Sequence record: OZ035744.1
Source of the DNA: Felixounavirus LF110P1
Length of the DNA: 64,000 nt
Strand: one strand, 5' to 3'
A program made the position numbers and the translations under genes. The notes below the pieces were generated by a model. The model did no database searches. It worked only from the letters and a program-made list of their open reading frames with translations, and was not told where the DNA came from. Positions 2,871 through 63,625 of the stretch are shown one piece after another (positions within the stretch are counted from its first letter, which is position 1; each line of letters begins with the position of its first letter).

Positions 2871-3127
2871 TTTGTAAATCCTTTCTTAATGAACCAGTTG
2901 ATAACACTCTTCACAACTTTACTACGATGGTAGATAAAATGTGGAGAGGGTTGGTATGAACCATAAGCCCAGAAAGCGATAATTTCATTACACCCTGTGC
3001 ATCGGGTACTTTCTTCAGCAATATGACCGTTGACTATTTCACTTACCTCACCTTGTAAGTCTGTACACCCGCAATGTGGACAACGGATAGGTGTTCCATC
3101 AGACTCATAGCAGTGTTCAATTTTCAT
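2867..3127 (-). CDS. zinc-ribbon protein (hypothetical)
   Basis: 86 aa with CPHCGC...CTGCNE cysteine pairs. Confidence 0.4.
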   Translation of the reverse strand: MKIEHCYESDGTPIRCPHCGCTDLQGEVSEIVNGHIAEESTRCTGCNEIIAFWAYGSYQPSPHFIYHRSKVVKSVINWFIKKGFTK

Positions 3128-3643
3128 CTATTTAACCTCAAAAACTGGTTCAAGAACCAATATAAAGTCTACACAGTCATCTTCTTCATCCAGAATACCA
3201 TCAAAGTTCTTAGGTACAAAGTCGAAGAGGCTCATAGAATATCGGTCAGAAGTAACCCTGATAGTGTTCCCTATATTCTCTACAGTTAATATTGTACGGC
3301 TTTCTGTTACCTCACTTAGAAGATTACTCACAAAGTCATCTAAGAAGTGTTTCATCAGTGACTTGAAGCCTTTAGGGTAATCTGTACCAGAGTATGTTTC
3401 AATCTGAGGAACAAGCTTAACATTTATACTAGTCTTTGTTAAGAACGTTTTAGAGAACATGCTATCAGGTAGCTTACAAACAGTCTTTCCAGTACCTTCA
3501 TGTTCAATCTCAACAAAACCAGCTTCGTCGCCACATGTAACTATTTTAAAAGATGCTTCATTCTCATACTGTGAAGCCATAAACTTTTTAAGCATTTCTT
3601 TAAGGAAATCTGCATGAGCATCTTGTAAGTAGATATCAATCAT
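3128..3643 (-). CDS. hypothetical protein
   Basis: 171 aa ORF, tightly packed in minus-strand operon. Confidence 0.4.
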   Translation of the reverse strand: MIDIYLQDAHADFLKEMLKKFMASQYENEASFKIVTCGDEAGFVEIEHEGTGKTVCKLPDSMFSKTFLTKTSINVKLVPQIETYSGTDYPKGFKSLMKHFLDDFVSNLLSEVTESRTILTVENIGNTIRVTSDRYSMSLFDFVPKNFDGILDEEDDCVDFILVLEPVFEVK

Positions 3644-7709: not shown

Positions 7710-8273
7710 TCAAGATAGTTTTGCAAACTCTCCGTGGAGTTTCACAGCAGCTTCACAGTAAGCTTTATGGGCTTCTTCAGGGGTGTCAAACATACCAAGA
7801 TGATAGTTTTTACCTTGTAAACGAATCATTGCTCTAAATCTTACACCTATCTTCTGCACACCTTTTGGCAACCCAGATAGGGACTTTCTTGACCGATTGC
7901 AAGAGTTTTGTGAAGCTGTACAAACCCTTAAATTCAAGTACCTATTGTCCCAACCATCACCATTCTTATGGTCAACCTGTAAGGTTTTATCAGGCAGGTA
8001 TCCATCCACATATAGTATTGCTAGACGGTTAGCTTGGTAGCCTTTACCATCAAGCAATAACTGAACAGACTTGTGACCGTCTGTGTTTATCCTATAATTT
8101 CCTGCCTTTTTACCTCCAAAACGAGAGTTGAAGTTCTTATTGCCTCGTGATACCGGCTCTCTAAACTTCCAAGTAAAGACCCCTGTTTCGGGGTCGTAGT
8201 CCAATAGCTCCTTAAGACGAATTTCTGTAATCATTTCAACACCATCAATGTACTTCCAACCAGCTCTTACCAA
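7710..8273 (-). CDS. HNH homing endonuclease with AP2-like DNA-binding domain
   Basis: HNH-like core (QVDHKNGDGWDNRYLNLRVCTASQN) plus C-terminal AP2-like segment (GVRFRAMIRLQGKNYHLGMFDTPEEAHKAY); overlaps 3' end of DNA polymerase gene. Confidence 0.6.
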   Translation of the reverse strand: MVRAGWKYIDGVEMITEIRLKELLDYDPETGVFTWKFREPVSRGNKNFNSRFGGKKAGNYRINTDGHKSVQLLLDGKGYQANRLAILYVDGYLPDKTLQVDHKNGDGWDNRYLNLRVCTASQNSCNRSRKSLSGLPKGVQKIGVRFRAMIRLQGKNYHLGMFDTPEEAHKAYCEAAVKLHGEFAKLS

Positions 8274-10944
8274 CCTTACCTGTGCCAGTTACAAGTGTCT
8301 CACTCTTCAAACCTAAATTCTTAGATGCCTGACCATACATCCAGTCAGTTATGGCTTTAACTTCTTGAGTCATACTTTCTGGGCATTCCCAACTGTTTTC
8401 ATCGTGGTATGCCAGCAAAAGCCTAGCACCAATTGCTGGTTTTCGTCCATTTAATTTTGTCAGTCCTTCTTCACATGCTCTTCTACAAGCAAGGTTAATT
8501 GCCTCATTTTGAATCTGAGCCTCCGAACCCATAAGCAAATAATTCAATAACTTATGTGGAGATTTGCACCACAACCAAGCTCCAGCAACTTTTACAAAGC
8601 CCCCTTTAGAGATTGCAGCAGTCTTACCAAATACCTCTTCAAGTGCCTTTTTAGTTGCTTTGTAGTCAGCTTCCAAGTCATCTAGCAGCTTTTTAATTTT
8701 AGGCAAACGAATAAAGTAAGTCTGTTTAGTCAGCGCACCTTCCTGAGTAGTTGCAGCCTTAATCGTCTTAGCAAACTTCTCATCACCTGCACCGAACAGC
8801 AGTGCATAGATACCATTCTTAGCTTTCTTACGACCCTTGCTAATCTCATGAAGAAGATTCTCATCCTGAGTAGCTCGACAAGTCAAGATGTCCTGCTCAT
8901 CGTTCAAGTTAAAGTAAATACTGTTCAGTGTATGTGCATCAGTCCCTGAATAGACAACGTACAGGTCATTCTCAGAGTCATAGCGAAGGTACTTATCAAT
9001 CTCTGGGTTGAGGTACTCATCAAAGTGTTTACAGTAATAGCGTCCATCTTCTTGACGAATGAACTCAATTTCTTCTTTACCTTGCGTTACCGCTTTGGTG
9101 AAGTCTTTATCACCCATAAAGTTACAAAGAAGAACTAGCTGGGCTGAGTTCATATCTACAGAGACAACGTTAGTACCTTCCTCACAAATCCACACTGCCC
9201 TCATTGGTTCCCCATAGACAGCAGCACCAGATGGTACGTTTACAATACCATACTGTGTCATACGTCCAGTTGAAGTACCAAACACCATTGCACCAGCACT
9301 AAGGCGACCATCAGGACGAATCTGGTTCAACCAACCTTTTTCATCATCCTTTGAGTTCTCAATAGTTCTGCGTCGGTGCATCAAAGTGTAGTATTTAGCA
9401 ATCTTCTGTCCAAGCTCACCTTCAATCGTATCGTAAGATGATTCAGTAAGTTTTGGTGAAGTACGGATTAAGCAAGGCTCAAGCAAATCTGTGTACTTCT
9501 TCACAGACCAGTTATGCTCAATGTACTGGACGCCTTCGTGTTCAACATAACTCAAACCACACCGCTCAACCATTTCCTGCCACTTAGGATGCTTTGTAAT
9601 CATCTTTTTATTGTCTTTGAAACGACAAACTTTGACAGGGCGACCATCAGAGTCTTTCTTGTAGTTCCAGTCATCTGGAATCCAACCAACTGATTTCAAG
9701 TAGTCTTTAACAACTGCTACCTGAGTCATACGAGAAACTTCAAACTCAATTGGTGTATATGGTGCATCAATCAAACCTGTGTAGCGACTTGACTCAAGTT
9801 CAAAGTGGTTAACAACGTGGCTGTTATAGTACTTCACAGTTTTGACTGTTTTTACTGGCTTCCAGTCTTTGCATTTCTTGCCAATCTTTGCGTTCAACTC
9901 ATTGCAAATTGCACGAGCATCCTTCATTGCTACAAAGCCTTCCTTGTACTCTTCACCAGTTACAGTGTTGGTTGGTGTATAGCAATTCCTTTTTTCAATG
10001 TTAAAAATCTTTGTAGTTGGCTTACCAAATGGTTTGATTTCGTATGTCTGCATCTCGCCATTACGTACCTGCTGACGATACTTTGTCTTAGGGTACTTGG
10101 TAATTCTTTTCAGTCCATCTGCATGACCAAATGTTTCAACATACTCATTCCAAGCTTTTGCAAACTCTTCTCCAGTGACTTTACCTTTGGTCTTAATAGT
10201 TGGAGGTAGATGTGGTTCAACCTCTGAAGCAAGCTCATTAGTCAACTTGTCAAGTTCCTTTACATGGAACTCCATAAGCTCTTTATCAGCTTTCCAACCA
10301 TTGATAGCTTGTTGACTCATCCAGAAAGATGTTTCTTTAGCTCGCATGTAGGTTTCATAAGTGTCTATGCCACACTTCTTAAGCTTGAGATACTCATTAT
10401 CAAGTGCCCGTTTAGTTTTGGCGTTAATACGGATATCTTCTACAACACGAGTGAAGATTTCTGCATTCCACACACCCCAATGTTCAATCTCTGGTTTACG
10501 AACACCGACACGAGCACCCCATGCAGCCAAACCATGAGCACCTTTATAACCCTTTGGAGTTGGTCTATCCATCCACTGAACACGAGACTGGATAAGAGAA
10601 TCCTGAAAGAAATTACTCCACGGTTTACACTTTGGATTATCAAAGTTCCATAAATCGGGTGCAATGTGATTGAAAACCCACCAGTCATAACCAAGACCAT
10701 TATGAATGCAAAGACGTTTTGCCTTTAACGCAAACTCAATACCTTCACGTAAGCCACCCTTAATGTACTTGGTATACTTGTGACCGAGGATAGGCTCATC
10801 TGTAAAGACCCATACAGGTGGCTCTTCATCGTCAGATTTATAGTCTGCGAAAGCCATTACGTGCACTTTAGTGAACTCAAGGAGTAAACCATCAGTTTCT
10901 GTATCACCAACTAAATGTAAGTTTTTAAAATCTACGTTTTCCAT
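8245..10944 (-). CDS. DNA polymerase, family A, with 3'-5' exonuclease domain
   Basis: exo motif VGDTETDG at N-terminus; motif B-like KNGIYALLFGAG; motif C LLAYHDE; start placed at MENVDF (GAGGGAG RBS) rather than track start 10974. Confidence 0.9.
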   Translation of the reverse strand: MENVDFKNLHLVGDTETDGLLLEFTKVHVMAFADYKSDDEEPPVWVFTDEPILGHKYTKYIKGGLREGIEFALKAKRLCIHNGLGYDWWVFNHIAPDLWNFDNPKCKPWSNFFQDSLIQSRVQWMDRPTPKGYKGAHGLAAWGARVGVRKPEIEHWGVWNAEIFTRVVEDIRINAKTKRALDNEYLKLKKCGIDTYETYMRAKETSFWMSQQAINGWKADKELMEFHVKELDKLTNELASEVEPHLPPTIKTKGKVTGEEFAKAWNEYVETFGHADGLKRITKYPKTKYRQQVRNGEMQTYEIKPFGKPTTKIFNIEKRNCYTPTNTVTGEEYKEGFVAMKDARAICNELNAKIGKKCKDWKPVKTVKTVKYYNSHVVNHFELESSRYTGLIDAPYTPIEFEVSRMTQVAVVKDYLKSVGWIPDDWNYKKDSDGRPVKVCRFKDNKKMITKHPKWQEMVERCGLSYVEHEGVQYIEHNWSVKKYTDLLEPCLIRTSPKLTESSYDTIEGELGQKIAKYYTLMHRRRTIENSKDDEKGWLNQIRPDGRLSAGAMVFGTSTGRMTQYGIVNVPSGAAVYGEPMRAVWICEEGTNVVSVDMNSAQLVLLCNFMGDKDFTKAVTQGKEEIEFIRQEDGRYYCKHFDEYLNPEIDKYLRYDSENDLYVVYSGTDAHTLNSIYFNLNDEQDILTCRATQDENLLHEISKGRKKAKNGIYALLFGAGDEKFAKTIKAATTQEGALTKQTYFIRLPKIKKLLDDLEADYKATKKALEEVFGKTAAISKGGFVKVAGAWLWCKSPHKLLNYLLMGSEAQIQNEAINLACRRACEEGLTKLNGRKPAIGARLLLAYHDENSWECPESMTQEVKAITDWMYGQASKNLGLKSETLVTGTGKVGKSWLEVH

Positions 10945-56418: not shown

Positions 56419-57834
56419 ATGAGCGAGTTATTTAAACATGCGCACCTTCATGCAGGTCGAACTGAAAATGGTGCTGTAAACCATACTTCATCAATGTCTG
56501 CTTTAGTAGATTTTTATAAAGCTGCTGGTTCAAGTCGTAGCAATGTAGAAATCTTACCAGACCTTTTCTATAAAGCTTTGCATGAGGATGTTGATGTTGC
56601 AGTTCGTATTTTACTGCATATGCGAGATGTACGAGAAGGTATGGGTGAGCGTAAAGCTTTCCGAACTGTTTTACTTCAAGCGATTGAAGATAAAGTTTTA
56701 GAGCCTACGCAGGTTCTTCGCATTATGGATAAGATTGCAGAACTTGGTCGTTTTGATGACTTCAAAATCTTCGTAGGTACTCGTTTCGAGACAGATGCCT
56801 TCAAACATTTAGAAGCAGCATTACTAGACCCTGCAACAGCAGGTTTGGCGGCTAAGTGGTTACCACGAGTCAAACCACGTCATAAGAAGTTTGTAAAACG
56901 TTTCTGCAAGTTTGCCAACTTGAGTGAGAAAGAGTACCGCACACTGTTGTCTGCACTATCTGATACAGTTGAGCAAAAAATCTCTGCTAATGAGTTTGGT
57001 AAGATTGACTACAGTAAGATTCCTTCACTTGCTGCTGCACGTTACCAAAAACTGTTTAACCGCAAAGATGGAGAACGCTACAAAGCTTACATCGAGTCCT
57101 TATCAAAGGGTGAGACTAAGATTAATGCTGGTGCTGTTTACCCATACGATGTAATTAAATCTGTTAAGCATGGTAATGCAGATGTTGCTAATGAGCAGTG
57201 GAAAGCACTACCAAACTGGATGGCAGAGGGTGAAAACATCTTGTGTATGTCTGATGTTTCAAGCTCAATGTCTTGGGTGAATTTTGGTTCAATTACTGCT
57301 CTTGATATTGGTGTTTCACTTGCATTGTATGTAGCAGAACGTAATACAGGTTGCTTTAAGAATGAGTTGATGGTTTATTCAACAAACCCTCACTTCATCG
57401 AACTGAGTGGTGATTTACGAAACCGTCATCGTCAGGTGATGCGACACGTTGAATATGGCTCAACTAACTTACAAGCAGCTTTTGACCGTATTCTTGAAAC
57501 AGGTAAAAGAAACAACTTGACTCAGAAAGATATGCCAAGTAAGCTTATCATCTTCTCCGATATGGAGTTCAATCAGGTTGATGGAGCTAACGGTCGTACA
57601 AACTTTGAAGCAATTCGTAGTAAGTACAAAAAAGCTGGATACGAAATGCCTCAACTGGTATTCTGGTACTTAGCAAACCGTAATGGTACTTGCGAAGTGT
57701 CTGTTAAGGATAACGGTGTAGCAATGGTATCTGGTTTTTCTCCAGCTACTTTAAAAGCTCTGCTTGGTGGTGAGAAGTTTGACCCAATCAGCGTAATGCT
57801 CAAAGCAGTAATGATTGACCGTTATATCTGGTAA
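56419..57834 (+). CDS. vWA-domain protein with Ro60-like architecture (helical N-terminal domain plus C-terminal von Willebrand A domain)
   Basis: MIDAS motif DVSSS (DxSxS) in ILCMSDVSSSMSW, with later GSTNLQAAF and IIFSDMEF; about 270 aa helical N-terminal region. Confidence 0.55.
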   Translation: MSELFKHAHLHAGRTENGAVNHTSSMSALVDFYKAAGSSRSNVEILPDLFYKALHEDVDVAVRILLHMRDVREGMGERKAFRTVLLQAIEDKVLEPTQVLRIMDKIAELGRFDDFKIFVGTRFETDAFKHLEAALLDPATAGLAAKWLPRVKPRHKKFVKRFCKFANLSEKEYRTLLSALSDTVEQKISANEFGKIDYSKIPSLAAARYQKLFNRKDGERYKAYIESLSKGETKINAGAVYPYDVIKSVKHGNADVANEQWKALPNWMAEGENILCMSDVSSSMSWVNFGSITALDIGVSLALYVAERNTGCFKNELMVYSTNPHFIELSGDLRNRHRQVMRHVEYGSTNLQAAFDRILETGKRNNLTQKDMPSKLIIFSDMEFNQVDGANGRTNFEAIRSKYKKAGYEMPQLVFWYLANRNGTCEVSVKDNGVAMVSGFSPATLKALLGGEKFDPISVMLKAVMIDRYIW

Positions 57835-57852: not shown

Positions 57853-57881
57853 TTGACAATGTGTTTGATACCCTTTAATAT
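57853..57881 (+). promoter_or_regulatory. sigma70-like promoter ahead of tRNA cluster
   Basis: TTGACA - 17 nt - TAATAT. Confidence 0.5.
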
Positions 57882-57999
57882 GTTCTACATAGAAACGAAA
57901 TGAGAGCTTTTCTAAGATACTGAAAAATATTTTAAAAAAGTTCTTGACAACCACTAAAAAATAATGTTAAAGTGGTTACATAGAGTTTGAAAAGTTTAT

Positions 58000-58076
58000 C
58001 TCTGTTTAGCTCAGCTTGGTAGAGCGTTCCGTTTGGGGCGGTAAGGCCGGAGGTTCAAGTCCTCCAACAGAGACCA
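58000..58076 (+). tRNA. tRNA-Pro (anticodon TGG), CCA encoded
   Basis: cloverleaf by hand: acceptor CTCTGTT/AACAGAG, T-arm GGAGG-TTCAAGT-CCTCC, anticodon loop TTTGGGG. Confidence 0.6.
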
Positions 58077-58083
58077 AATTAAT

Positions 58084-58158
58084 GTTCCAGTAGACAAAAT
58101 GGTAAAGTCACCACTCTTTCAAAGTGGATATCTGAGGGTTCAAATCCCTTCTGGAACG
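58084..58158 (+). tRNA. tRNA-Glu (anticodon TTC)
   Basis: acceptor GTTCCAG/CTGGAAC, anticodon stem CCACT/AGTGG, loop CTTTCAA, T-loop GGTTCAAATCC. Confidence 0.6.
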
Positions 58159-58165
58159 CCAGTTT

Positions 58166-58240
58166 TGACAGAAGACCAATTACAGCAAACTTAATCTACT
58201 CATCTGACACGAAATCGGACAAAGAAGATATTTGGTCTGG
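58166..58240 (+). repeat. inter-tRNA repeat copy 1 (CAGAAGACC-N3-TACAGCAA ... GGTCTGG)
   Basis: family of at least four copies between tRNAs (58166, 58335, 58725, 58811); possible fifth at about 61115. Confidence 0.5.
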
Positions 58241-58251
58241 TCATTGAGAAT

Positions 58252-58325
58252 TGCGGGTATAGAGAAAGGGCGTCTCACATGTCTCATTAGCATGGTATCG
58301 GCAGGTTCGACTCCTGCACCCGCCT
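58252..58325 (+). tRNA. tRNA-Met (anticodon CAT), initiator-like 1:72 mismatch
   Basis: T-arm GCAGG-TTCGACT-CCTGC, anticodon loop CTCATTA, D-stem GAGA/TCTC. Confidence 0.6.
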
Positions 58326-58334
58326 CCAATTTTG

Positions 58335-58392
58335 CAGAAGACCGTATTCAGCAACAAAATACTTTTTGCGGATAAAAGAAAAAACACGGTCT
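58335..58392 (+). repeat. inter-tRNA repeat copy 2
   Basis: GCAGAAGACCGTATTCAGCAA...CGGTCTGG. Confidence 0.5.
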
Positions 58393-58405
58393 GGCAATGT
58401 ATTAA

Positions 58406-58479
58406 GGTTAGGAAGCACATAAGGTATGTGCGGTCGCCTGTTAAGCGAATGGCACAGGGTTCGAATCCCTGACTAACCG
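58406..58479 (+). tRNA. tRNA-Asn (anticodon GTT)
   Basis: T-loop GGGTTCGAATCCC, anticodon loop CTGTTAA, acceptor GGTTAGG/ACTAACC. Confidence 0.6.
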
Positions 58480-58491
58480 CCAAATTTAAAT

Positions 58492-58576
58492 GTGTCGTTA
58501 TCCCGTAGATGGTAGCGGTGGGGACTGTAAATCCCTTGTCATTGAGACTCGGTAGGTTCGACTCCTACACGACACA
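58492..58576 (+). tRNA. tRNA-Tyr (anticodon GTA), long variable arm
   Basis: 85 nt; anticodon loop CTGTAAA; T-arm GTAGG-TTCGACT-CCTAC; acceptor GTGTCGT/ACGACAC. Confidence 0.6.
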
Positions 58577-58584
58577 CCAATAAA

Positions 58585-58659
58585 GGTTATGTAGTTTAAT
58601 TTGGTTAAAATACTCCCCTGTCACGGGAGATGATGAGGGTTCAAATCCCTTCGTAACCG
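58585..58659 (+). tRNA. tRNA-Asp (anticodon GTC)
   Basis: anticodon stem CTCCC/GGGAG, loop CTGTCAC; T-loop GGGTTCAAATCCC. Confidence 0.6.
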
Positions 58660-58724
58660 CCAATTTTGAGAGGGCTATTTAGCCCCTCCCTTAAAGAGTT
58701 CTTACGAGTATTCTTTAAAGGAGC

Positions 58725-58797
58725 AGAAGACCAAATACAGCAAGAATGTATGAAATTTCAAGCCAATTTAATTTTGAAAATTTAAAACTTGGTCTGG
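58725..58797 (+). repeat. inter-tRNA repeat copy 3
   Basis: CAGAAGACCAAATACAGCAA...TTGGTCTGG. Confidence 0.5.
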
Positions 58798-58810
58798 CTC
58801 AACAAATTTA

Positions 58811-58942
58811 CAGAAGACCGTTTACAGCAAAACTTAAACAATCTATTTCTCCGGTAAAGAAAAGGCGAAGGTTCGATTCCTTCACTCGGCAGATGTCGAG
58901 TTGGTGTAATGGTAGCACTTAAGATGATAAACAACGGTCTGG
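58811..58942 (+). repeat. inter-tRNA repeat copy 4 (extended, contains tRNA-like T-arm and D-arm fragments)
   Basis: CAGAAGACCGTTTACAGCAA ... GCGAAGGTTCGATTCCTTC ... GTTGGTGTAATGGTAGCAC ... CGGTCTGG. Confidence 0.45.
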
Positions 58943-58943
58943 T

Positions 58944-59086
58944 AATTATCTTTGTAGATAAGTTATTAAGCTTACCTGTGAGTATGCGACCACAAAGGGT
59001 GAAAGGGTAAATTCTAGATTTAAACCCAACAAGGCACATCGCTACAGACCTTAAGCAAGTCTGGGTAGCTTATCTACAAAGATAAT
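58944..59086 (+). ncRNA. candidate structured RNA: 17-bp perfect inverted repeat enclosing about 110 nt
   Basis: TTATCTTTGTAGATAAG (58944) pairs with CTTATCTACAAAGATAA (59069); no ORF; sits between tRNAs. Confidence 0.3.
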
Positions 59087-59091
59087 TTAAT

Positions 59092-59165
59092 GGAAGTGTA
59101 GCAGAATGGTGATGCGGCAGACTTTTAATCTGACAGGCGATGGGTTCGAATCCCTCCACTTCTAC
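59092..59165 (+). tRNA. tRNA-Lys (anticodon TTT)
   Basis: acceptor GGAAGTG/CACTTCT, loop CTTTTAA, T-loop GGGTTCGAATCCC; paralogue of tRNA at 60757. Confidence 0.55.
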
Positions 59166-59172
59166 CAATATG

Positions 59173-59246
59173 GTTCAGTCGCAGATAAGGTAATGCAGGG
59201 GTTTCATAAGCCCTATGAATGTGGGTTCGATTCCCATCTGAACCTC
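59173..59246 (+). tRNA. tRNA-Met or Ile2 (anticodon CAT)
   Basis: acceptor GGTTCAG/CTGAACC (perfect), loop TTCATAA, T-loop GGGTTCGATTCCC. Confidence 0.55.
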
Positions 59247-59251
59247 CAATT

Positions 59252-59323
59252 GTGGGTTAGCATAAATGGTAATGCAAACGGCTGATAACCGTTAGAAGAG
59301 GGTTCGATACCCTCACCTACAAC
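59252..59323 (+). tRNA. tRNA-Ile (anticodon GAT)
   Basis: anticodon stem AACGG/CCGTT, loop CTGATAA; T-arm GAGGG-TTCGATA-CCCTC. Confidence 0.6.
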
Positions 59324-59341
59324 CAATTTCAATAAAGTTGT

Positions 59342-59370
59342 TGACATTGAGATGTGACTACTTTATAGTA
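59342..59370 (+). promoter_or_regulatory. sigma70-like promoter inside tRNA cluster
   Basis: TTGACA - 17 nt - TATAGT. Confidence 0.5.
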
Positions 59371-59661
59371 GATAAAATAATTCATAATATGTATAATTCA
59401 AACACCAATACATGAGCGTTAGACGTAACACAATGTGGGGAAATTTGTTGTACATATTCTGAATAGTTTTCGTTGCGTAGCGTCTATTTTGCAAATTTAA
59501 AATAAATGCAAACGACAATGTTTTTCTGGCAGTAGCTTGATAGGCTAAACACCAGTGAGGTCTTCCAATCCCTCATCAAAGAATTTGGCGTACTAGCCCA
59601 CGGTATGATTAATAAAGTGGGCATCTTTAAGGGCTTTCTAAGAGAGTCTTTAAAGATTAAT

Positions 59662-59735
59662 GCACCCTTAGTTCAATTGGATAGAGCAACGGTCTTCTAA
59701 ATCGTTAGTTACAGGTTCGAATCCTGTAGGGTGTA
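59662..59735 (+). tRNA. tRNA-Arg (anticodon TCT)
   Basis: acceptor GCACCCT/AGGGTGT, D-arm GTTC...GAGC, loop CTTCTAA, T-loop AGGTTCGAATCCT. Confidence 0.6.
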
Positions 59736-59880
59736 CCAATTAGTTAGCAGATTACTTAGACGACCTTAGCGGGTCTTCCTGTAGGGAGGTGGTCTGTATC
59801 TCATGTTTTCCAGAACATGTAAATAATCTGAGAAGGGGCTTTACAGTGTTGAGATAATACGGTAAGCTTCGAATTATAGT

Positions 59881-59960
59881 ATGGGACGATGTTAAGACTC
59901 TAAGGCATGAGCAACGGCTTCCAACACCGTTTCAAAGGGGTTCAACTCCTCCGTCCCATG
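59881..59960 (+). tRNA. tRNA, isotype uncertain (possibly Trp, anticodon CCA), atypical extended D region
   Basis: perfect acceptor ATGGGAC/GTCCCAT, T-loop GGGTTCAACTCC, CCA encoded; D-arm does not fold canonically by hand. Confidence 0.4.
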
Positions 59961-59976
59961 CCAAAGATTGTTTCGG

Positions 59977-60060
59977 AGAGAGTGGCGGTCAACGGAGACC
60001 AACCAGCCTTGAAAACTGGTGCTGCTGGAAACGGTACGGGTTCGACTCCTGCACTCTCTG
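59977..60060 (+). tRNA. tRNA-Ser (anticodon TGA), long variable arm
   Basis: 84 nt; acceptor AGAGAGT/ACTCTCT; D-stem GGTC/GACC; loop CTTGAAA; 16-nt variable region; T-loop TTCGACT; CCA encoded. Confidence 0.5.
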
Positions 60061-60087
60061 CCAAAATGATTTTTTAAGGTGATGATT

Positions 60088-60429
60088 ATGAAGAAAGGTT
60101 CAGTAGGTGAAATTGCTACACAATTAGCTTTCCTCAAAAGAGGTTATGAAGTGTATTCACCAGCTACAGATAATGCAAAGTATGACTTTCTAGTTCACAA
60201 AGATGGTTTGATTGAGACTGTTGAGGTAAAATCAACCTCAGTCAAAAGAGGTGAACTTTGGAGAGTGCAACTGAAAAGAGTTCGTTCTAACAAGAATGAA
60301 AATAGAATAATGAATTTTGATAACTCTCAAGTTGATTACTTAGCTGTTTACATTGAACCACTTGATAAAGTCATCATCTACAAAGCTAAAGATATCAAGT
60401 CTAAGACTGAACTTAGCTTAAAGATTTAA
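60088..60429 (+). CDS. small protein embedded in tRNA cluster (possible PD-(D/E)xK-type nuclease)
   Basis: about 113 aa; D...E-x-K-like arrangement (DFLVHKDGLIETVEVK); RBS AAGGTGA. Confidence 0.3.
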   Translation: MKKGSVGEIATQLAFLKRGYEVYSPATDNAKYDFLVHKDGLIETVEVKSTSVKRGELWRVQLKRVRSNKNENRIMNFDNSQVDYLAVYIEPLDKVIIYKAKDIKSKTELSLKI

Positions 60430-60671
60430 TACTCCGTCCATGCTTGTTCGCATTGTCGGTTTATCCCTCGTGTTGTCGTACACACTGATAAAGCACCTAG
60501 TAGGTGTCACGGAGAAGAGATAGTATCAAGCTCTCCAAAGGTTCTAGTCACCGGATTAAACAAGACTATGCAAAGGCCTTCTTAGGTCTTTTTAGAGGGC
60601 TTCTAAGGTTATTACAGCTTGTTGTGGAACCTTGTTGCTTAGGTTCTTAGAAGTTCTCTAAAAAGATTTAA

Positions 60672-60746
60672 TGGGAGATTGACGGTAATTGGTAAACCTA
60701 CCATCCTTAGAAGTTGGTGTTTGAGGGTTCGAATCCCTTGTCTCCT
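60672..60746 (+). tRNA. tRNA, probably Leu (anticodon TAG), short variable arm
   Basis: acceptor GGGAGAT/GTCTCCT (with G-U), D-loop AATTGGTA, loop CTTAGAA, T-loop GGGTTCGAATCCC. Confidence 0.45.
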
Positions 60747-60756
60747 ACCAAATTAA

Positions 60757-60829
60757 TGCAGGTGTAGCAAAATGGTTATGCGGCTGACTCTTAATCAGTA
60801 AGACGATGGGTTCAATTCCCTCCACCTGT
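60757..60829 (+). tRNA. tRNA-Lys (anticodon CTT)
   Basis: anticodon stem GCTGA/TCAGT, loop CTCTTAA; T-loop GGGTTCAATTCCC. Confidence 0.55.
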
Positions 60830-60838
60830 ACCATACAT

Positions 60839-60911
60839 TGGGGATGTAGTTTACATGGTTAAAACATAAGTTTTGCAAACTTAAGTACAGGGTTCAATTC
60901 CCTGCTTCTCC
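60839..60911 (+). tRNA. tRNA-Ala (anticodon TGC)
   Basis: anticodon stem TAAGT/ACTTA, loop TTTGCAA; T-loop GGGTTCAATTCCC. Confidence 0.6.
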
Positions 60912-60920
60912 ACCAATTAG

Positions 60921-60992
60921 TGCATCCATAGTTTAAACGGGAAAATTACAGTCTTCCAAACTGAGGTTGAGGGTTCGATTCCCTCTGGATGC
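60921..60992 (+). tRNA. tRNA-Gly (anticodon TCC)
   Basis: perfect acceptor GCATCCA/TGGATGC; loop CTTCCAA; T-loop GGGTTCGATTCCC. Confidence 0.6.
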
Positions 60993-61002
60993 TCCAAATT
61001 AA

Positions 61003-61076
61003 TGCTGCTTTCGTATAATTGGCTATTACACATCCCTTGTAAGGATGGAAATGCGGGTTCGAGTCCTGTGAGCAGC
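61003..61076 (+). tRNA. tRNA-Thr (anticodon TGT)
   Basis: anticodon stem CATCC/GGATG, loop CTTGTAA; T-loop GGGTTCGAGTCC. Confidence 0.6.
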
Positions 61077-61080
61077 ACCA

Positions 61081-61172
61081 ATTCAGAGGTCAAGTGAAAG
61101 ACCGCTGGTGTCAACTGAAGACCGTAACAAATTCCACGGAGTTGAGTTAGCGGCACAACTTCAGACCTCTTT
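61081..61172 (+). other. intergenic inverted-repeat element (AGAGGTC ... GACCTCT) containing a GAAGACC motif
   Basis: CAGAGGTCAAGTGAAAGACCGCTGGTGTCAACTGAAGACCG...CAACTTCAGACCTCT; no ORF. Confidence 0.3.
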
Positions 61173-61174
61173 CA

Positions 61175-61246
61175 CACTCGCTTAGTTTATATGGTAAAAC
61201 ATCACCCTTACAAGATGAAGAAAAAGGTTCAAGTCCTTTAGTGAGT
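61175..61246 (+). tRNA. tRNA-Val (anticodon TAC)
   Basis: loop CTTACAA; T-arm AAAGG-TTCAAGT-CCTTT; acceptor ACTCGCT/AGTGAGT. Confidence 0.5.
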
Positions 61247-61250
61247 ACCA

Positions 61251-61325
61251 TGTTCCAGTATCCCAATTGGCAGAGGATGCAAGCTCAAACCTTGTATTAG
61301 TGACGGTTCGAATCCGTCTTGGAAC
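61251..61325 (+). tRNA. tRNA, probably Leu (anticodon CAA), short variable arm
   Basis: acceptor GTTCCAG/TTGGAAC; D-loop AATTGGCAGA; stem GCAAG/CTTGT, loop CTCAAAC; T-arm GACGG-TTCGAAT-CCGTC. Confidence 0.45.
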
Positions 61326-61333
61326 ACCAATTT

Positions 61334-61406
61334 TGCAGGATTAGTTCAAATGGATAGAGCAACAGTCTACGAAGCTGTTAATAGGGGTTCGAATCCCTTA
61401 TCCTGC
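61334..61406 (+). tRNA. tRNA-Arg (anticodon ACG)
   Basis: perfect acceptor GCAGGAT/ATCCTGC; loop CTACGAA; T-loop GGGTTCGAATCCC. Confidence 0.6.
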
Positions 61407-61428
61407 GCCAGATAAAAAAGGTGATACT

Positions 61429-61671
61429 ATGCAAACATTAACAGTAGTTGAACATGAAAACTGTGAGAGTATTGAGTTTGTCAGGGTCATTGGTGTTGAA
61501 CACCACATTTTCTTAAAAGTGGGATACTTATGTGACCCCGCTAGAGTAGAAAGATTTATACGTGATTGTTTTGGTGGTAGACATCTGAAGAGTGTTATTT
61601 TTGAGACAGTTTTACCAGAAGGTTTAGAAACGAATAATAACATTTACCTCCTTACGAGGATTAGACAATGA
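61429..61671 (+). CDS. hypothetical protein (within tRNA cluster)
   Basis: 80 aa ORF with AAAGGTGA RBS. Confidence 0.4.
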   Translation: MQTLTVVEHENCESIEFVRVIGVEHHIFLKVGYLCDPARVERFIRDCFGGRHLKSVIFETVLPEGLETNNNIYLLTRIRQ

Positions 61672-62225
61672 GATACTTAAAGTATGCTTCATGGATTTTC
61701 CTAGCTTTGCTAGAACCATTAGCAGCAACCTTAGCAGTTATCTTAGCACCTTTCGTAGTTCCATTTTACAGTGAGAAGAAAGGCCACTTACCTTTCGGAT
61801 TTAGATGGATGGAGACATATGACAACCCAATTGATGGTGACGAAGGTCATATCGAACGATGGGCTAAGATTAGAAAGATTGGTAAGCTGGGTGTCTACAT
61901 GCAGAGAGTCGGATGGCTCTGGAGAAACAAAGCTTATAACTTCTCTTACCATGTATTAGGAAGAGATGTAAAAGATGTTACTAAGTGGAAAGGTAATATC
62001 AACGTAAGTTCTGACCCTGAAGATAATCAGACAGGTTATCTCCTAATGTGGAACAGTAATGCTTGGGGATTATTCGCTTTTATCCCATCAATTAAAGTCT
62101 TTGGTAAACAGTTTTACTGGAGAATTTATATTGGATGGAAACTAAAAAGTGTTGTCCCAGAAGAAAGAGCATTCTCAAGGGAAAGAGTTATGTTGGCATT
62201 CTTTATTCATCCACTGAGAAAGTAA
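61668..62225 (+). CDS. hypothetical membrane-associated protein (within tRNA cluster)
   Basis: 185 aa; N-terminal hydrophobic helix (WIFLALLEPLAATLAVILAPFVVPF). Confidence 0.45.
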   Translation: MRYLKYASWIFLALLEPLAATLAVILAPFVVPFYSEKKGHLPFGFRWMETYDNPIDGDEGHIERWAKIRKIGKLGVYMQRVGWLWRNKAYNFSYHVLGRDVKDVTKWKGNINVSSDPEDNQTGYLLMWNSNAWGLFAFIPSIKVFGKQFYWRIYIGWKLKSVVPEERAFSRERVMLAFFIHPLRK

Positions 62226-62232
62226 AGATTTA

Positions 62233-62305
62233 AAGGGGATTAGTTTACAAGGTTAAAACCTCGGTCTTTGAAATCGAAGAAGTTGGTTCAATTCCAACAT
62301 CCCCC
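62233..62305 (+). tRNA. tRNA-Gln (anticodon TTG)
   Basis: D-stem GTTT/AAAC; anticodon stem TCGGT/ATCGA, loop CTTTGAA; T-arm GTTGG-TTCAATT-CCAAC. Confidence 0.55.
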
Positions 62306-62310
62306 GCCAA

Positions 62311-62386
62311 TGCTCCATTACTCCAATTGGCAGAGAGGCCAGACTTAAAATCTGTGTTATGTATCGGTTCGAATCCGATATGGAGT
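62311..62386 (+). tRNA. tRNA, probably Leu (anticodon TAA), short variable arm
   Basis: paralogue of tRNA at 61251 (same D-loop AATTGGCAGA); loop CTTAAAA; T-arm ATCGG-TTCGAAT-CCGAT. Confidence 0.45.
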
Positions 62387-62394
62387 ACCAAATT

Positions 62395-62467
62395 TAGCGG
62401 TATAGCATAACTGGCAATGCAACAGTCTCTGAAGCTGTCCTATTAAGGTTCAAATCCTTATGCCGCT
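62395..62467 (+). tRNA. tRNA-Gln (anticodon CTG)
   Basis: acceptor AGCGGTA/TGCCGCT; stem ACAGT/GCTGT, loop CTCTGAA; T-loop AGGTTCAAATCCT. Confidence 0.5.
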
Positions 62468-62502
62468 GCCACTTCTAAGGGTTCTTACGAGAGTCCTTAA
62501 AT

Positions 62503-62574
62503 GTGGCCTTATCATAAATGGTAATGACCCATGCTGTGAACATGGTCTATACGGGTTCAAATCCCGTAGGTCAC
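62503..62574 (+). tRNA. tRNA-His (anticodon GTG)
   Basis: anticodon stem CCATG/CATGG, loop CTGTGAA; T-arm ACGGG-TTCAAAT-CCCGT. Confidence 0.6.
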
Positions 62575-62582
62575 CCCAATTT

Positions 62583-62657
62583 ATAGTCCAAGTAGCTTAT
62601 ATGGTTAAAGCGCGTGTCTGAAAAACATGAGAAGAGGGTTCAAATCCCACTGGACTA
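62583..62657 (+). tRNA. tRNA-Phe (anticodon GAA)
   Basis: perfect acceptor TAGTCCA/TGGACTA; stem CGTGT/ACATG, loop CTGAAAA; T-loop GGGTTCAAATCCC. Confidence 0.55.
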
Positions 62658-62676
62658 CCAATTTCAAAGGTGCTTA

Positions 62677-63411
62677 ATGAAAGAGATGACAGAACAAGGT
62701 AAGGAGATTTTTAATCTCTTAAAAACCGGTAAAGGGTTTTCTAACCCACTTATTACTGGTGCAGCAGTTCTCGGTGGAACCGTAGCTGCTTCTACATCAC
62801 TTGTAAGCTCTATTAGTTCTGTAACAGACCCTACAATGCAGGAGAAACTTGTTGCTGCTGGACTTACAACAGTCCTTCTAAACAGCTTTACAACAAGCCT
62901 TACAAGCACTACAGCAACTACTAAGACCCTGACAGACTACGGTCAAAAATCTATTGATGAGTTTTCATCACGTATGCAGGTAGCAAAGGGATATTCCAAT
63001 GTTATGGGTGCAGCAGGAGAACAAGTTGGTTGTACACCGTTCAGTGGTATTATGGGTGTTGCTACAGAATATGGTCAAAAAGCTATTGATACGATTAACA
63101 GTACACTAGAGAGTGTTAACGATGTATTAAGTTACTTACAAGACGCTATTGACAAGGGTCTTGATACTGTTTCTGATTTAGCTAACCAAGCTGTCAGTAA
63201 GATTAATGAAGGTATCTCAAAGATTACAGCTTATGCAGATGAAGTTGTGCAGATGATTGAAGAAGAAGCTGCCCTTATTGCAGAGTACCTTAAAACGAAT
63301 ATCAATGGGTTCTTAGCAGGTATCTTACCAGACTGGTTTGATGATGCCTGTAAAACTGGTGTAATTGACACTATTGCAACACCAGAAATGAAGAACGCAT
63401 TACAGAAATAA
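62677..63411 (+). CDS. Ser/Thr-rich hypothetical protein
   Basis: track ORF 62614-63411 begins inside tRNA-Phe; more likely start is the internal ATG (MKEMTEQ) after AAAGGTG. Confidence 0.45.
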   Translation: MKEMTEQGKEIFNLLKTGKGFSNPLITGAAVLGGTVAASTSLVSSISSVTDPTMQEKLVAAGLTTVLLNSFTTSLTSTTATTKTLTDYGQKSIDEFSSRMQVAKGYSNVMGAAGEQVGCTPFSGIMGVATEYGQKAIDTINSTLESVNDVLSYLQDAIDKGLDTVSDLANQAVSKINEGISKITAYADEVVQMIEEEAALIAEYLKTNINGFLAGILPDWFDDACKTGVIDTIATPEMKNALQK

Positions 63412-63430
63412 TGGAAGATTAACCCTAAAA

Positions 63431-63505
63431 GGTAAGGGAGCAGTTTGCTAAACTGCCAGTAGCTGAGAAATCGGTGTGCCAGTTCAAGTCTGGTATCTTC
63501 CTCCA
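63431..63505 (+). other. tRNA-like element (T-arm plus CCA end, non-canonical 5' half)
   Basis: T-arm GCCAG-TTCAAGT-CTGGT and 3' ATCTTCC-T-CCA, but upstream forms a 7-bp hairpin GCAGTTT/AAACTGC instead of D and anticodon arms. Confidence 0.3.
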
Positions 63506-63509
63506 ATTT

Positions 63510-63582
63510 GAATCCGTGACAGAAATGGCTATGTGCCTGTCTGCAAAACAGGTTTATAAGGGTTCGAGTCCCTTCGGATTCT
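63510..63582 (+). tRNA. tRNA-Cys (anticodon GCA)
   Basis: perfect acceptor GAATCCG/CGGATTC; stem CCTGT/ACAGG, loop CTGCAAA; T-loop GGGTTCGAGTCCC. Confidence 0.6.
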
Positions 63583-63625
63583 CCAAGTTATTTTACTCTC
63601 TCTCAATTAAAATAATAATAATGCC

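Follow-up and report, generated by a model that had tools for sequence, protein, structure and literature searches.

The question raised by this locus is whether tRNA genes that carry leucine anticodons and lack the long variable arm of bacterial tRNA-Leu can be genuine leucine tRNAs. Three such genes, with anticodons UAG, CAA and UAA (hereafter the Leu trio), lie in a tRNA array at positions 58000-63585 of a 64,000-nucleotide (nt) stretch of DNA from Felixounavirus LF110P1 (sequence record OZ035744.1), the whole of which was analyzed and is called the window below. Our answer is that they are genuine isoacceptors of the armless kind, known as type I, which are most likely charged by the host's leucyl-tRNA synthetase (LeuRS) and decode codons favored by the phage; we put the probability of this reading at about 0.8. 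In tRNA-Leu, the long variable arm, characteristic of type II molecules, is held to be universal save in animal mitochondria (review PMC9976931), and a phage of Escherichia coli and Salmonella whose three tRNA-Leu are all type I goes against this textbook rule.

Both the anticodons and the absence of the arm are well established. A preliminary description of this DNA reported Leu anticodons TAG, CAA and TAA in genes starting at 60672, 61251 and 62311. ARAGORN concurs, with only the starts shifted by one base, and in the related phage Silverhawkium the tRNAscan-SE notes of its GenBank record give Leu anticodons and lengths identical to those of the window. In the ARAGORN structures, the three genes are ordinary cloverleaves without an extra arm, each with a 7-nt anticodon loop that includes U33, and they score 40-47.5 bits with the Rfam tRNA model, for which the gathering score is 29. 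Their lengths before CCA are 75, 75 and 76 nt, as had been estimated, and none of them has the class II variable region (more than 10 nt, with an extra stem-loop), which in the Tyr and the two Ser tRNAs of the same array spans 15-21 nt. The combination of an NAG or YAA anticodon with a short variable loop, which defines type I tRNA-Leu, is thus found in all three. Furthermore, the tRNA neighbors of the Leu genes are only 1-7 nt away, with Leu(CAA) located 1 nt after tRNA-Val and 5 nt before tRNA-Arg, and Leu(UAA) separated from its two tRNA-Gln neighbors by 2 nt on the 5' side and 5 nt on the 3' side, so that a hidden arm could not be accommodated, in agreement with the preliminary description. 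That description also allowed that these might be either atypical decoding tRNAs or products of a wrong anticodon assignment. The anticodons proved right and the arms short, and the genes are atypical only with respect to the textbook bacterial rule. The probability that the anticodons were mis-assigned, or that a long arm is concealed by mis-folding, is practically negligible, given that two programs return identical anticodons and that 75-76 nt in total, with gaps of 1-7 nt to the neighbors, leave nothing for an arm.

The D loop had likewise been described as Leu-like in all three genes. This holds for Leu(CAA) and Leu(UAA), in which a 3-base-pair (bp) D stem and an 11-nt D loop, here CAATTGGCAGA, are of the same size as in the E. 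coli leuQPV and leuZ genes; in Leu(UAG), the D stem contains one additional nucleotide. The Leu-like part of the D arm is the 3-bp stem together with the 11-nt loop rather than the 10-mer AATTGGYAKA alone; the latter was rejected as a Leu diagnostic because in IMG/VR it is also present in Thr, Lys, Trp, Asn and other tRNAs.

Which synthetase would charge such molecules? By established identity rules, LeuRS, seryl-tRNA synthetase (SerRS) and alanyl-tRNA synthetase (AlaRS) are the enzymes that recognize their tRNAs independently of the anticodon, and the NAG and YAA anticodons plausibly leave only these three as candidates. The determinants for AlaRS (G3:U70) and SerRS (long arm and G73) are missing from the trio: the 3:70 pairs are G-C, U-A and U-A, and the 3' tail is ACCA, which places A73 in all three. 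The E. coli enzyme (EcLeuRS) reportedly needs A73, A15:U48, G18G19 and A20a and depends on neither the anticodon nor the long arm, such that armless variants remain active (Giege-Eriani review, PMC9976931). The trio retains the elements reported as needed by EcLeuRS, with Leu(UAG) deviating by its one extra D-stem nucleotide. Our host reference consisted of the four MG1655 (E. coli K-12) tRNA-Leu genes that were fetched, namely leuQPV and leuZ. All four are type II, with a 3-bp D stem, an 11-nt D loop (GAATTGGTAGA and GAATCGGTAGA, respectively), U48 (a T closes the variable region), A73 and a variable arm of 14-15 nt.

The Leu genes are conserved in Felixounavirus, in Mooglevirus and in Erwinia, Pectobacterium and Yersinia phages, and GenBank relatives, in hundreds of records, already annotate them as tRNA-Leu. 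Type I tRNA-Leu with the UAG, CAA and UAA anticodons are found in wV8 and Silverhawkium, with CAA, AAG and UAA in Erwinia phage Coenus, and with UAG and UAA in Yersinia phage P778. In Pectobacterium phage Wc4-1, the UAG gene is type I but the UAA gene is type II (87 nt), and a type I Leu(UAG) is also present in the T5-like phage DT57C and in an Avunavirus. Leu(CAA) is identical in wV8, and the CAA and UAA genes show little or no change in wV8 and Silverhawkium, in contrast to the diverging spacers next to them. The Leu(UAG) slot is occupied by two unrelated type I alleles, that of the window and that of wV8 and Silverhawkium (3429-3505 in loci L126 and L127). The allele of the window is shared with Wc4-1 (L128 5004-5081), where the extra D-stem nucleotide is kept and the changes in the anticodon stem are compensatory; it is 79% identical to the DT57C Leu(UAG) outside the variable region and resembles the T5-like and Avunavirus genes. 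These resemblances suggest that the alternate Leu(UAG) alleles could have been exchanged as cassettes between phage families.

To place these genes among those of uncultivated phages, IMG/VR was scanned with a sequence pattern, and ARAGORN was then run on the resulting loci, at least 120 in number. These contained 58 type I tRNA-Leu (variable region of 3-8 nt) versus about 40 type II, whereas the variable region of tRNA-Ser was 14-23 nt without exception. When only loci whose matching tRNA was not tRNA-Leu were considered, which amounts to a roughly unbiased sample, 13 of the 44 tRNA-Leu were type I; both types were present in 11 loci. We further aligned 49 distinct type I tRNA-Leu, which came from the window itself, from cultured phages and from IMG/VR. 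Among these, 97.3% of the cells were paired and 383 were changed on both sides, compared to 33-46% paired in slid controls, although the sequences were picked by ARAGORN, which favors cloverleaves, so that the pairing is partly built in. U8, G18G19 and U48 were invariant and A14 and A15 were at least 90% conserved; A73 was constant as well, in a set that had been filtered on an A73 tail, so that its invariance is also partly built in.

A more specific pattern, applied to one genome per bacterial species, matched at least 120 loci, every one of which was a type I tRNA-Leu. Most of these are single chromosomal Leu(UAA) genes, along with Leu(CAA) and Leu(UAG), in Actinobacteria (Nocardia, Mycobacterium, Gordonia, Rhodococcus, Arthrobacter, Bifidobacterium and Rothia); the others belong to arrays of 8-26 tRNA genes in cyanobacteria, Acidobacteriota, Planctomycetota and other bacteria. 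Outside the variable region, the CAA and UAA genes of the window are 73-80% identical to the bacterial and IMG/VR type I genes but only 50-59% identical to E. coli tRNA-Leu, which indicates that the phage genes belong to a distinct type I lineage. Judging from these sequence comparisons, the phage genes do not appear to be host copies that recently lost the arm, but rather members of an older lineage that is represented in phage arrays and on actinobacterial chromosomes. Type I tRNA-Leu has been studied in Streptomyces, where LeuRS charges its type I tRNA by means of its own leucine-specific domain, and animal mitochondrial tRNA-Leu have been named type I as well (PMC6614811). The tRNA that Fan et al. 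studied in Streptomyces is a single member of this much broader type I group.

The codon usage of the phage agrees with a decoding role. In the 76 long open reading frames (ORFs) of the window, leucine is encoded by UUA (26%), CUU (26%), CUG (16%), UUG (14%), CUA (11%) and CUC (7%), whereas the host is CUG-biased, with CUG accounting for about half of the leucine codons of E. coli. Under the reading that we favor, the type I tRNAs would be cut from polycistronic transcripts once the phage has infected its enterobacterial host, whose LeuRS would leucylate them, after which the UAA and CAA tRNAs would read UUA and UUG, and the UAG tRNA would read CUN. The codons thus served would be those most used by the AT-rich phage and least well served by the host, that is, a case of standard codon compensation.

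Several observations weigh against this reading, in addition to the way in which the covariation set was picked. EcLeuRS did not charge a transcript of the Streptomyces coelicolor type I tRNA-Leu(CAA) in vitro, and the authors of that study, who treat Streptomyces as the exceptional case, state that EcLeuRS charges type II tRNA-Leu only (Fan et al. 2019, PMC6614811). Expression, leucylation and translational use of the trio are what we infer, and, given the failure of EcLeuRS on the Streptomyces tRNA, charging by the host enzyme is reasoned rather than demonstrated. In Leu(UAG), moreover, the D stem has its additional nucleotide, the anticodon stem contains a U.U mismatch and position 37 is A, and the Rfam score of this gene (40 bits) is the lowest of the three; its anticodon loop, CUUAGAA (60708-60714), thus differs at position 37 from E. 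coli Leu(CAG), which has G37, and both A37 and G37 are found in phage type I Leu(NAG). Finally, phage tRNAs are mostly non-essential in the related phage Bas63 (PMC11482910).

The failure of EcLeuRS to charge a natural type I tRNA in vitro (PMC6614811) is also what would be expected if the trio were non-decoding tRNA mimics, uncharged by the host LeuRS, that act either as Y RNAs bound by a Ro60-like protein or as decoys for tRNA-targeting effectors. A Ro60 homologue is indeed encoded directly upstream of the array, and the PhageMaP preprint speculates that some annotated tRNAs of Bas63 are Y RNAs (PMC11482910). However, all three genes fold into the full cloverleaf and combine a U33-containing anticodon loop with A73, an encoded CCA and the complete set of mapped LeuRS core elements, and their anticodons suit the leucine codons preferred by the phage. 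Without the trio, the array would miss leucine, whereas the trio and the Trp variant described below bring it to all 20 amino acids. The spacers contain better Y-RNA candidates, and known Y RNAs end in a long stem rather than in a free acceptor end (PMC4201824). We consider mimicry improbable, and a still smaller probability attaches to decaying pseudogenes with deleted variable arms. The latter would agree with the labels tRNA-OTHER or pseudo that one Leu gene bears in some GenBank records, but 'OTHER' is plausibly the output of an isotype classifier faced with a Leu anticodon on a type I body, and decay is hard to reconcile with conservation across genera accompanied by compensatory changes, with CAA and UAA genes that are nearly identical in wV8 and Silverhawkium despite diverging spacers, and with tertiary-core nucleotides that are all intact.

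Why, then, is the arm absent from presumably functional leucine tRNAs? Either relaxed constraint (LeuRS has no need of the arm whereas SerRS needs it) or escape from arm-recognizing nucleases could account for its absence. In the adaptive version, which is compatible with decoding, type I tRNAs would escape a host-defense or phage shut-off nuclease or toxin that targets the class II long arm. In line with this possibility, type I is over-represented in phages (13 of the 44 tRNA-Leu in the IMG/VR sample) compared to the four E. coli genes fetched, all of which are type II; either of two unrelated type I Leu(UAG) alleles can fill one slot, depending on the Felixounavirus; the type differs between T5 and DT57C at the matching slot; and the arm is lost in Leu only, being always kept in Ser. 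Host tRNA-Leu is reportedly cleaved after T4 infection, which our literature search did not confirm. That phage tRNAs counter tRNA-targeting defenses is, furthermore, an accepted idea (cited in PMC11482910). Nevertheless, the analysis identified no nuclease specific to the tRNA-Leu arm and yielded no direct evidence for such an escape, some phages (11 loci) carry both types, type I tRNA-Leu are ordinary chromosomal genes in Actinobacteria, and loss in Leu only is equally predicted by neutral drift, given that SerRS needs the arm and E. coli LeuRS does not. We therefore regard selective escape as an unlikely, although by no means negligible, cause. The compound claim that the armless lineage was selected as invisible to arm-recognizing nucleases or toxins, and that enterobacterial LeuRS charges natural type I tRNAs in vivo, is somewhat more doubtful.

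The armless Leu feature is real and under-appreciated but not new, being annotated in hundreds of records and having an architecture known from Streptomyces and mitochondria. In a full-text literature search, type I or short-arm tRNA-Leu was not connected with phages in any paper, a weak negative because most subscription journals were out of reach. The interest of the trio stems from conflicting accounts of whether a natural type I tRNA-Leu is a substrate of enterobacterial LeuRS: if the host enzyme does charge these tRNAs, the published statement that EcLeuRS charges type II only (PMC6614811) is contradicted. Type I accounts for about one third of the tRNA-Leu in the sampled uncultivated phage contigs and is the standard form of one chromosomal tRNA-Leu in many Actinobacteria; annotation pipelines will call such genes 'tRNA-OTHER' or pseudo. 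As probable natural and compact LeuRS substrates, the phage tRNAs could also be of use in genetic-code engineering.

The preliminary description estimated about 26 tRNAs that cover most amino acids. ARAGORN, run on the whole window, finds exactly 26, all on the plus strand, and the sole amino acid without a gene among them is Trp. The 20th amino acid appears to be supplied at 59881, where the preliminary description noted a tRNA with an over-long D region. The tRNA is real, but its D arm is normal and covaries, and the excess is a 10-nt insertion ahead of the D stem. The element has the acceptor stem ATGGGAC/GTCCCAT (A1-U72), G73, a CCA end and a T arm. The connector between the acceptor and the D stem, GAUGUUAAGA, is 10 nt long instead of the standard 2 nt (U8, N9). 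The 5-bp anticodon stem closes a 9-nt loop with a CCA anticodon or, equivalently, a 7-nt loop behind a C.A mismatch, which reads UUCCAAC in the window and CUCCAAA in most relatives. Neither ARAGORN nor Rfam called this element, and ARAGORN with relaxed thresholds returned only a spurious 'Pyl' call. We collected 10 distinct variants from Silverhawkium (L127 ~2995-3077), Yersinia phage P778 (L370 ~10413-10498) and IMG/VR. The connector is conserved in all 10, and every variant has either A1-U72 or G1.U72. In the nine ungapped sequences, 99.4% of the cells were paired and 6 pairs were changed on both sides, whereas none of the slid controls contained any such pair; covariation is seen in the D stem (CUC/GAG versus CAC/GUG). 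Since tRNA-Trp identity resides in the CCA anticodon and G73 and, in E. coli, also in A1-U72, and this complete set is found at 59881-59963, we read the element, from its sequence and covariation, as a probable variant tRNA-Trp.

Directly upstream of the array, the product of the gene at 56419-57834 matches DUF2828 and DUF7788 in Pfam and PHROG 850 ('RNA-binding protein'). The AlphaFold2 (AF2) model, built with 37 homologues, has a mean pLDDT of 88.9 and a pTM of 0.88. When it was compared to the PDB with Foldseek, the top 11 matches were all Ro60, TROVE or Rsr proteins aligned over the full length (E-values of 2e-8 to 2e-6, best TM score of 0.66), including 9kop, 9l5y, 2i91, 1yvp and 2nvo; Ro60 of Thermus phage phiLo, Xenopus Ro60 and Deinococcus Rsr are among the 11. 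The relationship was detected by fold search only, with no match to the sequences of the PDB found by phmmer. The predicted structure thus identifies the product as a structural Ro60/Rsr homologue with a TROVE ring and a vWA fold. The family is large in phages, with 2553 matches at E-values of 1e-5 or below, including Vibrio KVP40-like and Yersinia phages.

Four elements in spacers near the beginning of the array are candidate partners for such a protein. They share a UWWCAGCAA motif and the termini 5'-CAGAAGACCR...YGGUCUGG-3', which pair with each other in a stem that shows covariation between the copies and in P778 (GACCAA/UUGGUC, GACCGU/ACGGUC and GACUGU/ACAGUC). P778 retains the elements with altered stems (L370 ~8142-8215, 8342-8410 and 8790-8875), and they are also conserved in wV8, in Silverhawkium and in Felix-like contigs of IMG/VR. 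In the fourth element, a circularly permuted tRNA-like domain runs from a T arm (GAAGG-UUCGAUU-CCUUC) through a loop-closed acceptor-like stem to a D arm (GUG-UAAUGGUAG-CAC). The acceptor-like stem has an unrelated sequence in Silverhawkium, where its pairing is maintained; Rfam gives a weak partial tRNA match at 58834-58884. In E-value mode, Rfam found no Y-RNA or other informative family in the spacers, only chance-level matches (Plastid-ycf2 on the tRNA antisense strand, miRNA families and a weak tmRNA). The half-motif CAGAAGACCNNNNNCAGCAA was found in 120 IMG/VR loci, of which only about 11, essentially all Felix-like contigs, contain complete elements; the remaining single matches are probably due to chance. 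Bacterial YrlA-type Y RNAs adjoin Ro60 and carry a tRNA-like domain (Chen et al. 2014, PMC4201824), and from their position and predicted folding the four elements look like candidate Y RNAs. A 2024 preprint reports that gp130 of Bas63 resembles Ro60 and counters the Ppl defense, and guesses that some annotated tRNAs are Y RNAs (PMC11482910). The spacer elements would be more specific candidates than those annotated tRNAs, and they provide the phage Ro60 homologue of the window with concrete candidate partners; for the related gp130, the preprint left the RNAs unlocated. In the P778 array, orphan T arms that belong to no called tRNA are also present in the spacers (L370 ~9125, 9365 and 10236, plus strand); these may be further tRNA-like RNAs or remnants.

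The window belongs to a Felixounavirus, that is, a Felix O1-like myovirus of the Ounavirinae, and megablast matched it to 348 phage records, of which 189 cover at least 80% of 57900-63700; identity is 93-97% in the best 20 of the 348. CCA is encoded in all 26 tRNAs, and 24 of the 26 reach the Rfam gathering score. The two below it are the CAU tRNA at 58252, for which no Rfam tRNA match was found even with E-values up to 5, and Ser(UGA) at 59977, for which the tRNA-Sec model competes. The discriminator bases mostly agree with E. coli identity rules, the exceptions noticed being both CAU tRNAs and Ser(GCU), all with U73; the CAU tRNAs may be Met, initiator or Ile2 (lysidine) species. The preliminary description recognized four sub-clusters, each preceded by a TTGACA-17-TAnnnT promoter. 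Three sites of the form TTGACA-17/18-TAnnnT do exist and are plausible promoters, but they do not precede every tRNA group, the groups number about six (238-823 nt apart, with internal gaps of 1-9 nt and a few of 31-95 nt), and promoter-like matches as a whole are not enriched in the region (15 versus 14.0 +/- 3.8 expected from shuffles). Inverted repeats of the form TTAAAGA..TCTTA..TCTTTAA / CTTCTAAGGGTTCTTACGAGAGTCCTTAA recur on the plus strand at 58689-58722, 59625-59656, 60576-60668 and 62473-62502, directly 5' of several tRNAs or spacer elements, and may be processing or termination hairpins. In relatives, ORFs for an HNH endonuclease or 'endonuclease VII' are located close to the place of the PDDEXK_5 ORF in the array; endonuclease ORFs within arrays are consistent with homing-endonuclease traffic. 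The coordinates of all features are collected in the table.

Table. Features of the tRNA array and its upstream flank, in window coordinates.
Feature	Position	Strand	Remarks	Evidence
Ro60 (TROVE + vWA) homologue	56419..57834	+	471 aa, directly upstream of array	Pfam, PHROG, AF2, Foldseek
Promoter-like site	57853..57881	+	TTGACA-17-TAATAT	consensus match only
Promoter-like site	57944..57973	+	TTGACA-18-TAAAGT, 27 nt 5' of first tRNA	consensus match only
tRNA array	58000..63585	+	26 standard tRNA genes and 1 tRNA-Trp variant, among small ORFs and structured spacers	ARAGORN, Rfam, megablast
tRNA-Pro(UGG)	58000..58076	+		ARAGORN, Rfam
tRNA-Glu(UUC)	58084..58161	+		ARAGORN, Rfam
Y-RNA-like spacer element 1	58169..58240	+	CAGAAGACC...GGUCUGG closing stem, UUACAGCAA motif	
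CAU-anticodon tRNA (Met or Ile2)	58252..58328	+	U73, 1-72 unpaired	ARAGORN only
Y-RNA-like spacer element 2	58335..58394	+		
tRNA-Asn(GUU)	58406..58482	+		ARAGORN, Rfam
tRNA-Tyr(GUA)	58492..58579	+	88 nt, long variable arm (15 nt)	ARAGORN, Rfam
tRNA-Asp(GUC)	58585..58662	+		ARAGORN, Rfam
Y-RNA-like spacer element 3	58724..58797	+		
Y-RNA-like spacer element 4	58811..58942	+	permuted tRNA-like domain	
tRNA-Lys(UUU)	59092..59167	+		ARAGORN, Rfam
CAU-anticodon tRNA (Met or Ile2)	59172..59248	+	U73	ARAGORN, Rfam
tRNA-Ile(GAU)	59251..59325	+		ARAGORN, Rfam
Promoter-like site	59341..59369	+	TTGACA-17-TATAGT	consensus match only
tRNA-Arg(UCU)	59662..59738	+		ARAGORN, Rfam
tRNA-Trp(CCA), probable variant	59881..59963	+		direct reading, covariation
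tRNA-Ser(UGA)	59977..60063	+	87 nt, long variable arm (16 nt)	ARAGORN; Rfam: tRNA-Sec, sub-threshold
PD-(D/E)XK endonuclease ORF	60088..60429	+	113 aa, in array	Pfam PDDEXK_5, E 4e-17
tRNA-Leu(UAG), type I	60673..60750	+	78 nt including CCA (75 + CCA), variable region 3-4 nt, A73, G1.U72	ARAGORN, Rfam
tRNA-Lys(CUU)	60758..60833	+		ARAGORN, Rfam
tRNA-Ala(UGC)	60840..60915	+		ARAGORN, Rfam
tRNA-Gly(UCC)	60922..60996	+		ARAGORN, Rfam
tRNA-Thr(UGU)	61004..61080	+		ARAGORN, Rfam
tRNA-Val(UAC)	61176..61250	+		ARAGORN, Rfam
tRNA-Leu(CAA), type I	61252..61329	+	78 nt including CCA (75 + CCA), variable region TTAGT (5 nt), A73	ARAGORN, Rfam
tRNA-Arg(ACG)	61335..61410	+		ARAGORN, Rfam
ORF, phrog_14202	61429..61671	+	80 aa	
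ORF, DUF7338	61668..62225	+	185 aa	Pfam
tRNA-Gln(UUG)	62234..62309	+		ARAGORN, Rfam
tRNA-Leu(UAA), type I	62312..62390	+	79 nt including CCA (76 + CCA), variable region GTTATGT (7 nt), A73, G1.U72	ARAGORN, Rfam
tRNA-Gln(CUG)	62396..62471	+		ARAGORN, Rfam
tRNA-His(GUG)	62503..62578	+		ARAGORN, Rfam
tRNA-Phe(GAA)	62585..62660	+		ARAGORN, Rfam
ORF, DUF7217	62677..63411	+	244 aa	Pfam
tRNA-Ser(GCU)	63413..63505	+	93 nt, long variable arm (21 nt)	ARAGORN, Rfam
tRNA-Cys(GCA)	63510..63585	+		ARAGORN, Rfam

Among known systems, the Felix O1-like arrays of wV8, Silverhawkium and EC106 are the closest, with the genes and their order as in the window, 93-97% nucleotide identity and three annotated tRNA-Leu of 77-79 nt. 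They differ in the details: the window has the Leu(UAG) allele of Wc4-1 and the T5-like phages whereas wV8 has its own, and the place of the window's Arg(UCU) and long-connector Trp variant is taken in wV8 by a Trp gene of 71 nt, the D arm of which is reduced (L126 2582-2652). The T5 and T5-like regions resemble the window in that a large tRNA array is broken by homing-endonuclease ORFs and by small stable RNAs that partly resemble tRNAs. In the T5 and DT57C records, these are listed as 'stable RNAs' or 'tRNA-like stable RNAs of unknown function' (RNAI, RNAIII, RNA1, RNA2, RNA3 and RNAX) in the tRNA regions, and by analogy they may be functional counterparts of the spacer elements; the examined part of T5 showed no Ro60 homologue. 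Unlike the window, T5 has an 85-nt Leu(UAG) with a variable region of 12-13 nt. The amber-suppressor notes on tRNA-Leu in its GenBank record, considered as support for the charging of type I tRNAs, are uninformative for the same reason. The bacterial Ro60/YrlA systems share with the window a Ro60-fold protein that adjoins small RNAs (putative in the window) encoded on the same strand and having a stem formed by the 5' and 3' ends and, in one element, a YrlA-like tRNA-like domain with T and D arms. The published Y-RNA motif GNCGAAN0-1G is matched only loosely by the CAGAAG of the window, and the phage protein is annotated as the DUF2828 type rather than as TROVE.

With the type II tRNA-Leu of E. 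coli, the Leu trio has in common U8, U48, A73 and an encoded CCA. The D arm of leuQPV and leuZ equals that of the phage CAA and UAA genes (3-bp stem and 11-nt loop with GG at the identical offset), and the G1.U72 of leuZ is also found in the phage UAA and UAG genes. However, the variable region is 14-15 nt long in E. coli versus 3-7 nt in the trio, and identity outside the arm between the E. coli and the phage type I genes is only 50-64%. The type I tRNA-Leu of Streptomyces and other actinobacteria are more similar, sharing the short variable loop, which usually ends in GT, the D loop CAATTGGCAGA and A73, with 73-78% identity to the CAA and UAA genes of the window outside the variable region. 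The charging enzymes differ, being presumably the enterobacterial LeuRS for the phage trio and, in Streptomyces, the species' own LeuRS. Animal mitochondrial type I tRNA-Leu, which we compared by description only, likewise have a short variable loop, whereas the phage trio is bacterial-looking and keeps the canonical core of the D and T loops (G18G19 and a TTCRANY T loop).

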